Source: Carcharhinus amblyrhynchos
Taxonomy: Eukaryota
Length of the DNA: 64,000 bases
Assembly (NCBI GenBank): GCA_965287045.1
Contig: OZ336890.1
Location: forward strand, 22,568,001 to 22,632,000
Direction: 5' to 3'
Positions within the stretch are counted from its first letter, which is position 1. Each line of letters starts with the position of its first letter. Under the pieces are notes generated by a model. The model saw only the letters and a list, made by a program, of their open reading frames with translations, ran no database searches and was not told the origin of the DNA. Below are positions 7,823 to 63,330 of this stretch, piece after piece. Both the position numbers and the translations under genes were made by a program.

Positions 7823-8050
7823 GAGCTTGGGTCGCTGTCTGTGCAGAGTCTGAACGTTCTCCTCGTGTCTGCGTTGGTTTCCTCTGGGTGCTCCGTTTTC
7901 TTCCCAGTCTGAAAGATGTGCTGGTTAGGTGGATTGACCATGCTAAATTCTCTTTCAGTACCTGAACAGGAGTGTGGCAACTCAAGGATTTTCACAGTAA
8001 CTTAATTGCAGTGTTAGTGTAAGCCTACTTGTGACTAATAAATAAATTTT
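7823..8050 (+). mobile_element. HE1-like V-SINE, 5'-truncated, with a GTGACTAATAAATAAA tail
   Basis: It has the V-domain GTCTGTGCAGAGTCTGAACGTTCTCCTCGTGTCTGCG and the tail GGATTTTCACAGTAACTT...GTAAGCCTACTTGTGACTAATAAATAAA. Confidence 0.85.
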
Positions 8051-16967: not shown

Positions 16968-18370
16968 AAAAGGAGATAGAGAATCTGGTGATCAAGAAGG
17001 CGAATGGAATGCTAGCCTTTATAGCGAGGAGGATAGAATATAAAAGTAGGGAGGTCTTGCTGCAACTGTGCAGGGTACTGGTGAGGCCACAGCTGGAGTA
17101 CTGTGTGCAGCTTTGGTCGCTGCACTTGCACAAGGATATTTTGGCCTTGGAGGGAGTGCAGAGGAGGTTCACTAGGCTGATACCGGAGATGAGGGAGTTG
17201 GACTATGAAGACAGACTAAATAGACTGGGTTTGCACTCATTGGAGTTTAGAAGGATGAGGGGGGATCTTATAGAGACGTATAAGGTAGTGAAAGGGATGG
17301 ATAGGGTAGAGGTCGAGAGATTTTTCCCTCTTAGAAAGGATAACAGGACTAGAGGGCACAGCCTCAAGATAAGGGGGGGGGGGCGCAGTTTAGATCGGAG
17401 TTGAGGAGGAACTTCTTCACTCAAAGAGTGGTGAATCTCTGGAATTCTCTGCCCATTGAAGTGGTGGAGGCTAAATATATTCACTTAATATATTTAAGTC
17501 ACGGGTAAATAGGTTTTTGACAGACAAGGGAATTAAGGGTTATGGGGAGAAAGCAGGAAAGTGGAACTGATCCACTTCAGATCAGCCATGATCTTATTGA
17601 ATGGTGGAGCAGGCTAGATGGCCTACTCCTGCTCCTATTTCTTATGTTCTTATGGTGAACTGGTGCAGCAAAAATAATCTCTTCCTCAGTGTCAACAACA
17701 CAAAGGAGATTGTCATCAATTTCGAAAAGCATAAAGGAAAACTTGCCCCTGTCTACATCAATGGGGATGAAGTAGAAAAGATCAAGAGCTTCAAGATTTT
17801 AAGTGTCCAAATCACCAATAATCTGTTCCAGTCCCCCCATGTGAACACTATAGTTAAGAAAGCTTACCAATGCCTTTACTTTCTCAGAAGACAAAGGAAA
17901 TTTGGCATATCAGTTACTTTTAAAGGTGCACCATAGAAAGCATTCTTTCTGGTTGTATCACAGCTCTGCTCAAGGTTGCAAGAAGTACAAAAGGTCGTAA
18001 ATGTAGCCCAATCCATCATGCAAACCAGCCTCCCATTCATTGACTCTGTCTACACTTCCTGCTGACTTGGCAAAGCAGCCAGCATAATTAAGGACCCGAT
18101 GCACCCTGGACACTCTCTCTTCCATCGGATAAAAGATACACAAGTCTGAGGTCACATACCAACCGACTCAAGAACAACTTCTTCCCTGGTGCTGTCAGAC
18201 TTTTGAATGGACTTACCTTGCATTAAGTTGATCTTTCTCTACGCCCTAGCCATGACTGTAACATTATATTCTGCAATCTCTCATGAACAGTATGTTTTGT
18301 CTGCATTGCACACAAGAAACAATACTTTTCATTGTATGTTAATACATGTGACAATAATAAGTCAAATCAA
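16968..18370 (+). mobile_element. Rex1/Babar-type LINE 3' fragment, split by a CR1 insertion
   Basis: It encodes EIENLV|NWCSKNNLFLSVNNTKEIVINF...VKKAYQCLYFLRR. The 3' UTR ends CATGTGACAATAATAAGTCAAATCAAA. Confidence 0.85.
16992..17652 (+). mobile_element. CR1 LINE 3' end (RT C-terminus plus 3' UTR)
   Basis: It encodes KKANGMLAFIARRIEYKSREVLLQLCRVLVRPQLEYCVQLWS...RRMRGDLIETYK...TRGHSLKI and ends with the tail CCTACTCCTGCTCCTATTTCTTATGTTCTTA. TGGTGA direct repeats flank it. Confidence 0.95.
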
Positions 18371-28792: not shown

Positions 28793-28879
28793 AACTCACC
28801 TGATGAAGGAGCAGCATTTCGAAACCTCGTAATTCCAAATAAATCTGTTGGACTTTAACCTGGTGTTGTGAACTTCTTA
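28793..28879 (+). mobile_element. Penelope-like terminal-repeat fragment with a degenerate hammerhead ribozyme motif
   Basis: CTCAC-CTGATGA-A-GGAGC-AGC-ATTTC-GAAA-CCTCGT...AATAAATCTGTTGGACTTTAACCTGGTGTTGTG is clearly homologous to 38031-38125. Confidence 0.75.
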
Positions 28880-36714: not shown

Positions 36715-37956
36715 GTTGAAAAAAGGAGCTGGAGAGAAAAGACTAGATTTAATGGAACATGGACTGGTTGTATCAACAATGCGATCTGTGAACTCTCCAG
36801 GATGTGTCAATCAGCCTTATAAAACTTAATGGAGCAGAAGGTAATTGTATAAACAAACAATAATACCTCTGCTGAAGTAGCACCTCCTGTCAATCAAAGC
36901 AGTTCAAAAAGATCTGCTAACAGCTAAGGCTTATGAGAGAAAGCAAGTGGGATCTCCCTTTTGAAATAGATTGCTGCTATTATTACTAACACTTCGAAGA
37001 GGTCTGCTAATACCTGGGACTTATGACATCAATGAAGGGCAATCCCTACATAAGAATGGTCTACTGCTGTTATTTAAATGTTCATGGGGCATGGATTTTA
37101 ATGTGACCAGGCAACTTCAAGGCTAATACAGAAAACATACAATTTAACCAGAAAGGTGCCTGAAATTTACCATCCTGAGATTGAGTTTTCCAAGGCAGCA
37201 ACCCCGATCCCGGTGAAGAACCATGAGATCAACCCCTCCCTCCATCTCAAGCCCCAGGTCTTTTGAGGCAACACCCCTCCCCAGCAACTGTACAGCCCAT
37301 GGACAGCTCTGACAGAAAGTTAAATGTTGAACGTACCTCCTGGTTCCACCTTGGAGCCCATGTCACTGATGAGATTGAAATAGGTGCTCATGAGTTCTGA
37401 TCAGATTCTTTTCTGGACGAAAACCTGATCTCGACGCGGGAGTGAGACTAGAGACTTGCAACAGGTTTGATACCTGGCAAGAATCCCATTTTGGTCCTCG
37501 CACCCAATTAAAAGGGCCACTGGGAATCCCAGCTGGGGTTACTAACCCTGGAGAATCACCCCTATACTTGTTTAATGTCTTAACCAATCAATAATCCAAT
37601 GCCACATATATACCTTACAACACACTTCCACAAATTGAAATCTTTTCAACAAACAGTCTACACTCAGTCCTATATTCCAGTGGATTCACCTCTCCCGTTT
37701 TGCTGAGCCATGACGTCCAGTGATTGTTGAAGTCTTCCCCTCAGTCTCCTGAAAATTTCAGGACTTACTTTCAGCAGTAAGGCCTAATCCAATGATTCCT
37801 CCTTCCAGTCTCACCAGGGTGAATTTTCAAATATCCTTAAATCATTGTGTGTTACTTTTTGACAGTAGACAAACCTTCAAAAGACTGGGAATAATTTCCC
37901 CTGTAAGAAGTCTCACAACACCAGGTTAAAGTCCAGCAGGTTTATTTGGTAGCATA

Positions 37957-37999
37957 CGCCACTAGCTTTTGGGGCTTTTCCCCTTCGTCAGGCGAGTGG
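37957..37999 (-). ncRNA. Hammerhead ribozyme motif with a core mutation (G12 to A), probably inactive
   Basis: The reverse strand reads CUCGC-CUGACGA-A-GGGG-AAAAG-CCCC-AAAA-GCUAGUGG. GAAA has become AAAA through a C-to-T change at 37970 in a CpG. Confidence 0.6.
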
Positions 38000-38030
38000 G
38001 GAGTTCAGATCACAAACAGGTCAGAACTCC

Positions 38031-38073
38031 CCACTCACCTGACGAAGGGGAAAAGCCCCGAAAGCTAGTGGTG
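38031..38073 (+). ncRNA. Minimal type I hammerhead ribozyme
   Basis: The motif comprises CUGACGA (38039-38045), an extra A, stem II GGGG/CCCC with loop AAAAG, GAAA (38060-38063), palindromic AGCU as a minimal stem III, cleavage triplet CUA (cut after 38067), and stem I UCAC/GUGG. Confidence 0.75.
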
Positions 38074-38681
38074 TTTGCTACCAATTAAACCTGTTGGACT
38101 TTAACCTGGTGTTGTGAGACTTCTTTACCACAGTCCAACATCAGCATCTCCACACCACAATAATTTCCCCAGCATTCTTTCTGGGAACAGATAGGCAAAA
38201 CAATCTTCCTTTTCCTCAACAAACTACAGCAACTGCTGTTCCTTGTCTGTCTGCCTATCTGTCTCTTTCTTTCTCTCTCTAATTGTTGCAGTTCAAACTC
38301 TCTGAGACTAAAAAGTCTTGCAATAACAAGAACATTTGCTTCTGCCTTTGTTTTCAGGTGTTAAATCTGGCAGCTGCGTTTCAATTAAACATGACCTGGG
38401 CCCCTATTCTTCATGATTAACAAGCCAGGCAGGCTTGTTATCAGGTAGAACTCATAGCAGATCACATGCCTCTCTTCACTACTCAATTTTACCTTTAATT
38501 AAAGAGATAATCATCTTATAAAACCTCATATTTATAAATACATCACTATTCATTTGGATTATAATTGTAATCCAATTTTTATTTTCCAATTAAAAACATC
38601 ATTTCAGCCTTCAAACTGTGACAACATTGGGTTGCGTAACCAAGATCAGAATAATCTCTTACATTATGGTTACTTTTAAGG

Positions 38682-62399: not shown

Positions 62400-63330
62400 A
62401 TTGGAAGTAGAGGTTAGTTATTAAAGGTGGCAGTAGATAGGAAGTAGTATCCCACAAGGACTAATGCTGGGACCACGGCTGTTCATAATTTACATCGATG
62501 ATTTAGATTTTGGAATTAAAAGCACAACTTCTAAATTTGCAGACAACACTACATTGGGAGGGATAGTTGACACTGAAGACATCTATAGTAGGAGACGTTA
62601 TTCAGCTGTCAGAATGGACATATAATTGGCAAATGAATTTCAGGATAGGTCATTGTGTTACATTCTGGTTTTCAAAAAAGAGCCGCATGTTACTTTCAAA
62701 ATAAGAATCTAGCAGGAAAGCAAAGATCTGAGAGTACAAATATACAAGCCACAAAAAGTTACAGAGCAAGTCATAAAGGTTATTGCAGATGCAAATCAAG
62801 CACTGGGGTTTATTTCTACCTGAAAAGAATTGCCAAATAGAGAAACTATCTGAAACTTATATCAAACACTGGTAAGACCACATTTAAAATGGTACGGTTC
62901 TAAGGTGGGTTTTTCTGGCCTCCCAATGTGTTTCCTGGCGGTGGGAGGCATTGTGCCATTTGCTGGCAGCTGGCTTCTCTGGTCCCACTGCTGTTAATGG
63001 GATTTCTCACTTAAGTTACCCCCAGGCCACCAGGAAACCTGTGGGCAGGAGTGTGTTGAACCAGAGAATCCTTCTGCCAGAGAACAGAGAATTCTGGTCA
63101 TAGCTATCATATTATACAAAGGATATAGGGGCAGTAAAGAGGGTGCAAAAAAGAATTGCAGGGATTATACCATAATTGAGTAAATACCTATCAAGAAAGA
63201 ATGAATTGTTCATGTTTTTTCTCACATGGGAAGAGAAAACTGAAGCTTGCTGAAGAGGGTCTATAAGATTGTAAAAGGTTTTGATAGAATTGTCACAGGG
63301 AGTATTTCCGCTTATGCAGAATTCGGAAAA
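62400..63330 (+). mobile_element. Old CR1 RT fragment split by a MITE
   Basis: It encodes [37 protein letters not shown], the RT core QG and FADD motifs. It resumes after 63100 with KDIGAVKRVQKR...VYKIVKGFDR. Confidence 0.78.
62903..63099. mobile_element. MITE of about 200 bp inserted into CR1
   Basis: It has GGTGGGTTTTTCTGG...CAGAGAATTCTGGTC termini and a core CTGCTGTTAATGGGATTTC. It interrupts the CR1 reading frame. Confidence 0.55.

Follow-up and report, generated by a model that had tools for sequence, protein, structure and literature searches.

The window, a 64,000-nt stretch of Carcharhinus amblyrhynchos DNA, contains a 257-bp insertion (37902-38158) that carries a minimal type I hammerhead in its right arm. 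The parts of the insertion, its flanking duplications and one relative elsewhere in the window are as follows.

28794-28879, + strand: solo member of the insertion's family, decayed, with a weakened helix II and a broken stem-III palindrome, ending at the tailless terminus
37890-37901, + strand: left target-site duplication (TSD), 12 bp, AT-rich, an exact 12-mer repeated at 38159-38170
37902-38020, - strand: left arm, a tailless 5'-truncated terminal-repeat (pLTR) copy including the central loop (from the inverted repeat and family contigs)
37963-37991, - strand: second hammerhead, with G12 changed to A at 37970, a CpG site (from sequence comparison)
38012-38018, no strand assigned: hairpin loop of 7 nt with the sequence of the minus-strand (left) copy (from the fold and family contigs)
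38019-38125, + strand: right arm, a 5'-truncated pLTR copy holding the intact hammerhead (from the inverted repeat and sequence comparison)
38032-38073, + strand: minimal type I hammerhead, an intact motif in the right arm that fits the consensus in Fig. S3 of Cervera and De la Pena
38126-38158, + strand: AC-rich tail (79% A+C) of 33 nt, at one end only (from base composition and family contigs)
38159-38170, + strand: right target-site duplication, an exact copy of the 12-mer at 37890-37901

The two arms form an inverted repeat (37905-38009 / 38021-38125) that is 93% complementary, and the left and right copies overlap by about 2 nt (38019-38020). A shared 12-mer of this kind arose by chance in 2 of 5000 draws of like-sized random window pairs. 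The left arm carries the G12-to-A copy of the hammerhead on the minus strand, and a hammerhead with G12 replaced is catalytically dead by established hammerhead chemistry. The solo copy, which lies 9.2 kb upstream of the hammerhead, has no obvious target duplication, and its helix II is nearer to the family majority. A long inverted repeat with a target-site duplication would also suit a palindromic DNA-transposon derivative (MITE) that holds the hammerhead by accident; this origin is hardly plausible here, as the tail separates arm from duplication at just one end, a single arm occurs alone at 28794-28879, the centres of the relatives vary, the duplication is 12 bp long and the motif is of the Penelope-like element (PLE) type.

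The core sequence CUGACGA occupies 38039-38045 on the + strand (C3 = 38039) and is followed by an unpaired extra adenine, A38046, between A9 and G10.1, a hallmark of PLE minimal hammerheads that the first-pass annotation had passed over. Helix II pairs GGGG (38047-38050) with CCCC (38056-38059) across a 5-nt loop, and is followed by GAAA (38060-38063), the self-complementary AGCU (38063-38066) and H17 (A38067), after which the + strand is predicted to be cut. The first-pass annotation had described a complete core (CUGACGA, GAAA and CUA), a 4-bp GC stem II and an AGCU palindrome replacing a full stem III, and each of these is confirmed at the positions given (38039-38067), so that the hammerhead motif is real. 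Its 4-bp stem I (UCAC/GUGG) holds in part: the two strands are in place (38035-38038 / 38068-38071), but only three Watson-Crick pairs are formed (38036-38038 / 38068-38070), and the helix can be extended only by one G-U pair or by a bulged 3-bp stem. When 38031-38073 is folded alone as a 43-mer, the minimum-energy structure contains helices I and II, with the bulged 3-bp extension of helix I. In the element sense, 38010-38024 presents pyrimidines and then CAG just upstream of the hammerhead arm and resembles a 3' splice site; in Drosophila virilis Penelope, the intron end is described as adjoining helix I (PMC4209133).

The loose core pattern matched the window twice against 1.18 matches expected, which is not significant. 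By contrast, the strict descriptor, comprising the core and helices I and II, matched once (at 38039) against a shuffle mean of 0.03, and at least one match appeared in 9 of 300 shuffles. The covariance-model search suggested in the first-pass annotation gave no hammerhead: no Rfam hammerhead family was found over the window at the gathering score, and the 14 matches returned up to an E value of 10 in 37850-38250 were all generic hairpin models below the gathering score. Such a miss is to be expected, because the motif has neither helix III nor a closed loop 1. The features of PLE minimal hammerheads are all present, namely the core CUGANGA ... GAAA ... UH (38039-38067), the extra nucleotide (A38046), the G10.1-C11.1 pair (G38047-C38059) within a covarying helix II, and the palindromic positions 15-16 in place of a full helix III (38063-38066). 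Judged from its sequence, the motif thus behaves like a PLE terminal hammerhead in every class feature that can be tested.

Comparison with the PLE minimal hammerheads described by Cervera and De la Pena in 2014 (PMC4209133) revealed a fit to the Fig. S3 consensus at every position, extra nucleotide included, which supports the earlier assignment to the PLE type. They share the CUGANGAH core with an extra nucleotide, the G10.1-C11.1 pair, palindromic positions 15-16, the lack of loop 3 and a 3-bp helix I, as well as the occurrence of dispersed truncated copies and close opposite-strand pairs, reported there at spacings of 100-700 bp. The nearest rows of Fig. S3 are Xenopus tropicalis (2) and Acropora digitifera, and cartilaginous fish are absent among the rows compared. 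The present motif differs in its short helix II of 4 bp, and the locus in having no attached RT-EN ORF.

The anatomy of the insertion likewise resembles that of EN+ PLE insertions (PMC3846280, PMC8557442), in that a head-to-head inverted 5'-truncated pLTR copy, a tail of the 30-40-bp class at one end (33 nt) and a short target-site duplication (12 bp, at an AT-rich site) are all present. Tails of 30-40 bp are described in several accounts of PLEs (PMC11167929, PMC8557442, PMC3846280), and Pen2a of A. vaga combines an inverted pLTR with a 31-bp tail and a 9-bp duplication (PMC3846280). The present insertion, however, consists of only two pLTR ends within 257 bp and contains no coding sequence. 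Poseidon PAc of Anolis carolinensis (Frangieh et al. 2024, PMC11167929) has the same placement of the hammerhead upstream of two 3' termini, the same AC-rich tail between them and an AT-rich target, but PAc is autonomous and was tested in vitro. The non-LTR retrozymes (PMC7229834; bioRxiv 10.64898/2026.07.22.740005) are also non-coding, PLE-related and equipped with a type I hammerhead, but they are described as head-to-tail arrays with two same-strand ribozymes, in contrast to the head-to-head arrangement here with one hammerhead per strand. A non-LTR retrozyme was accordingly rejected as an identification of the locus, as the window has one strict hammerhead match and the arms are inverted. 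No published description of such a family in sharks was found in the literature consulted, although the retrozyme preprint, which covers one cartilaginous fish, may hold it.

To place the insertion within its family, contigs from four of 24 sequencing runs were compared, namely X3, which is the closest to the window, and one run each from organisms A, B and C. Between 34,269 and 77,623 contigs per run aligned to the stretch, and in each arm the contigs covering the terminal 40 nt reached a summed depth of 1.7-6.2 million against 4-20 on the unique flank. Summed contig depth is no copy number, and can be read only as a rough order of 100,000 copies for the family of hammerhead-bearing PLE ends. 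In each of the 15 joints listed (634 further ones exist), the alignment jumps over 54-171 nt within the palindrome, as expected of palindromic relatives with shorter centres. One contig, X3-4, crosses the hairpin centre (37952-38054) with 12 differences and four gaps, which suggests a further palindrome whose centre resembles this one.

Contigs from the unique flank run into the insertion from both sides in all four runs. The junction is bridged by at least 31 letters in three of them (X3 on the left, B and C on the right), and organism A has 23 letters on each side, under the 31-letter rule; the insertion is common to at least two other organisms. Differences from the window in the flank number 4 of 1011 positions in X3, 11 of 990 in A, 13 of 1000 in B and 23 of 1030 in C. 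Because the arms differ from each other at 7 of 105 positions against 23 of 1030 flank positions in organism C, the insertion appears to predate the divergence from organism C, with a wide error. Among the listed contigs of the other organisms, none reaches the right-arm core from the unique flank. In family coordinates the two termini are spaced by about 38 nt of tail, compared to 33 nt at this locus. At the arm junction (38125/38126) it is 8 nt short of the family loose-end consensus, possibly an insertion scar, and this deficit is apparently common to a contig of organism C, the short side of which has 30 letters against the 31-letter rule.

Further comparison with the family revealed that its majority has GGAG/CUCC in helix II and U at N7, whereas GGGG/CCCC and C are found in the two arms at this locus. 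The third pair of helix II has thus changed from A-U to G-C in a compensatory manner, before the insertion took place. This is evidence for maintenance of the fold in the parent lineage and is silent on the function of this copy. Of the seven differences between the arms, one falls in the 16 core positions. Five are placed in the left arm and two in the right arm since insertion, the polarity being set by the family table for five, by the conserved G12 for one and by presumed CpG decay for one. Selection on the right arm, considered on account of its fewer changes, was rejected, as the imbalance is not significant (p = 0.45). At 3.3% change per arm, an intact core of 11-15 nt has a chance of 0.60-0.69 without selection; because the arms differ at so few positions, one intact core is unremarkable.

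Taken together, the motif is very probably the inherited hammerhead of a PLE terminal repeat, carried by a 257-bp inverted insertion that is now a neutral fossil. One observation counts against neutrality: two CpGs (38043 and 38059) survive in the right arm, in a window where CpG is depleted (CpG ratios of 0.06-0.43). For the origin of the insertion, we propose that a trans-acting PLE enzyme with reverse transcriptase and GIY-YIG endonuclease activities made a staggered cut, offset by 12 nt, at an AT-rich position, and that two head-to-head copies were then taken of no more than the final 120-140 nt of the element RNA, one starting from the tail end and the other from the end without a tail. 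Tandem transcripts of the parent element would be cleaved by a hammerhead dimer that pairs through its AGCU palindromes, probably assisted by protein. In viral and metagenome contigs, neither a homolog of the arm nor a linked autonomous PLE (RT + GIY-YIG) was found. Exact arm patterns gave no matches in viral contigs; in metagenome contigs they gave none and then four after a further pattern search, and these four share only an 18-19-nt arm pattern and were judged to be chance.

The centre of the palindrome bears on how the two arms were joined. Among the records listed, the alignment of four out of eight left-arm family contigs extends as far as 38020 and none of 13 right-arm family contigs starts before 38019, and the loop would therefore belong to the tailless copy, with an overlap of about 2 nt. 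Only one of the 32 records listed (204,098 further ones exist) crosses the hairpin centre. It is possible that one cDNA folded back at the centre and was copied into the second arm, with later endonuclease resolution either adding the tail or leaving it behind. The variants that both arms share against the family majority are consistent with such a fold-back, as are the derivation of the loop from one copy and the overlap of the arms by about 2 nt, and self-priming or an antisense template was proposed by Arkhipova et al. for A. vaga (PMC3846280). Nevertheless, with the loop coming from the tailless copy, the fold-back product would have no sense-strand tail, and a second priming event at the right end would still be needed unless the template was antisense. 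The anole PLE protein, on the other hand, is reported to nick and extend both strands, to start at two sites, one on either side of the tail, and to be a predicted dimer (PMC11167929). From the tail argument and these findings of Frangieh et al., two-ended priming, with a start at each end of the cut, fits best, and we tentatively favor it as the source of the palindrome, at somewhat short of even confidence, since one locus cannot decide the matter. In a more detailed and quite improbable version, mini-palindromes would form when a dimeric PLE protein primes both nicked strands at the two tail-bounding start sites on two templates of the same source, with the 3' ends of the two cDNAs then joined. 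On this view, which is speculation as regards the palindrome, AGCU would act mainly as a kissing element that keeps the paired templates in contact, much as the dimer signal of retroviruses does, and less as a catalytic helix.

Folding with ViennaRNA, a model to which the kissing dimer, Mg2+ and protein help are external, showed that the whole insertion unit collapses into one hairpin of roughly 110 bp (-202 kcal/mol, z of -27). For RNAs that start at or before 37950, the probability of helices I and II falls to between 1e-38 and 1e-44, in agreement with the earlier proposal that a read-through RNA sequesters the motif. These models predict that the hammerhead of the locus is almost certainly folded shut in read-through RNA and probably inert. 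For RNAs that start at or after 38000, the probability of both helices is 0.3-0.7 when they end at 38073 and 0.01-0.33 when they end at 38125, and it drops to between 2e-4 and 2e-2 when they run to 38160-38260, where downstream sequence competes.

The dimer requirement of PLE hammerheads with a palindromic stub, which the first-pass annotation had taken as established, agrees with published reports (PMC4209133, PMC6765202). A single minimal hammerhead of S. mansoni is reported to be inactive and dimers to cleave weakly (PMC4209133), a review of the primary dimer-cleavage work states that minimal hammerheads need a dimer (PMC6765202), and among the published Xenopus dimers one of nine cleaved and eight did not. 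The anole PLE hammerhead reportedly cleaved only with its own protein and was dispensable for insertion in vitro, and no RNA-seq read is reported to end at its cut site (PMC11167929). For the present motif, the predicted trans homodimer binds at -3.3 to -4.8 kcal/mol, corresponding to a Kd of 0.4-5 mM.

It was also proposed that this copy is a working ribozyme, cutting + strand RNA after 38067 as an intermolecular dimer, with transcription starting inside the hairpin centre. The core, helices and palindrome are indeed intact, the short RNAs from 38000 or later to 38073 can form helices I and II, and many family copies could serve as partners. We nevertheless consider cleavage here very unlikely, as transcription would have to begin no more than about 35 nt from the motif, a TATA-like motif was looked for in 37800-38060 and not found, longer RNAs largely lose the helices and the predicted dimer is millimolar; the lack of RNA-seq ends at the anole cut site, the inactive single hammerheads and the eight uncleaved Xenopus dimers point the same way, and the intact core is expected by chance. 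The related suggestion that cleavage is gated by the transcription start gains no support either, given that neither this promoter motif nor a host exon was found in the regions searched and that RNAs free of the left arm form the helices at 0.02-2% once they pass the tail. That no same-strand partner lies nearby is correct only in part: a decayed + strand copy occurs at 28794-28879, but its palindrome is broken. As a neutral fossil, the locus would bury its hammerhead in the read-through hairpin; its minus-strand twin no longer has G12, so that RNA from that strand would contain the G12A version, and there is no dimer partner.

If the locus is transcribed, the long hairpin itself could be the relevant product, as a substrate of A-to-I editing or of small-RNA processing in place of a ribozyme. 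The stability of the fold argues for this, and frog palindromic repeats and lizard Penelope are heavily edited according to published work. We regard it as unlikely for this locus, where no RNA evidence was found and no host exon was recognized among 363 stop-to-stop frames of at least 55 aa that were compared against Pfam (shorter exons would escape this search); it is compatible with the origin as a PLE fossil and does not exclude it. At the level of the family, such hairpins may contribute a large share of the long double-stranded RNA that these genomes produce.

The motif class, the dimer requirement and the inverted arrangement are already published, and the locus is an ordinary PLE relic, of little importance as a ribozyme in its own right. 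Its residual interest is how the palindrome arose, for which the anatomy favors two-ended priming at the cut. With copies on the order of 100,000, many of them palindromes, the hammerhead-bearing PLE end offers a natural data set on the formation of PLE inverted repeats and tails.

The surroundings of the insertion are poor in recognizable genes. The window has no long ORF and no tRNA genes, and a crude exon scan of it yielded nothing convincing. The only match above the cut-off among the 363 frames is Pfam ALKBH8_N at 17601-17933 (+), a family often matched by LINE tails, and RVT_1 matches weakly at 62437-62622 (+); both are most likely LINE fragments. Dispersed SINE-like families occur across the window, for example at 7824, 16602 and 36477, and a short hairpin (38412-38448) lies downstream of the insertion in a low-copy repeat region with raised depth at about 38229-38392 and 38434-38515.
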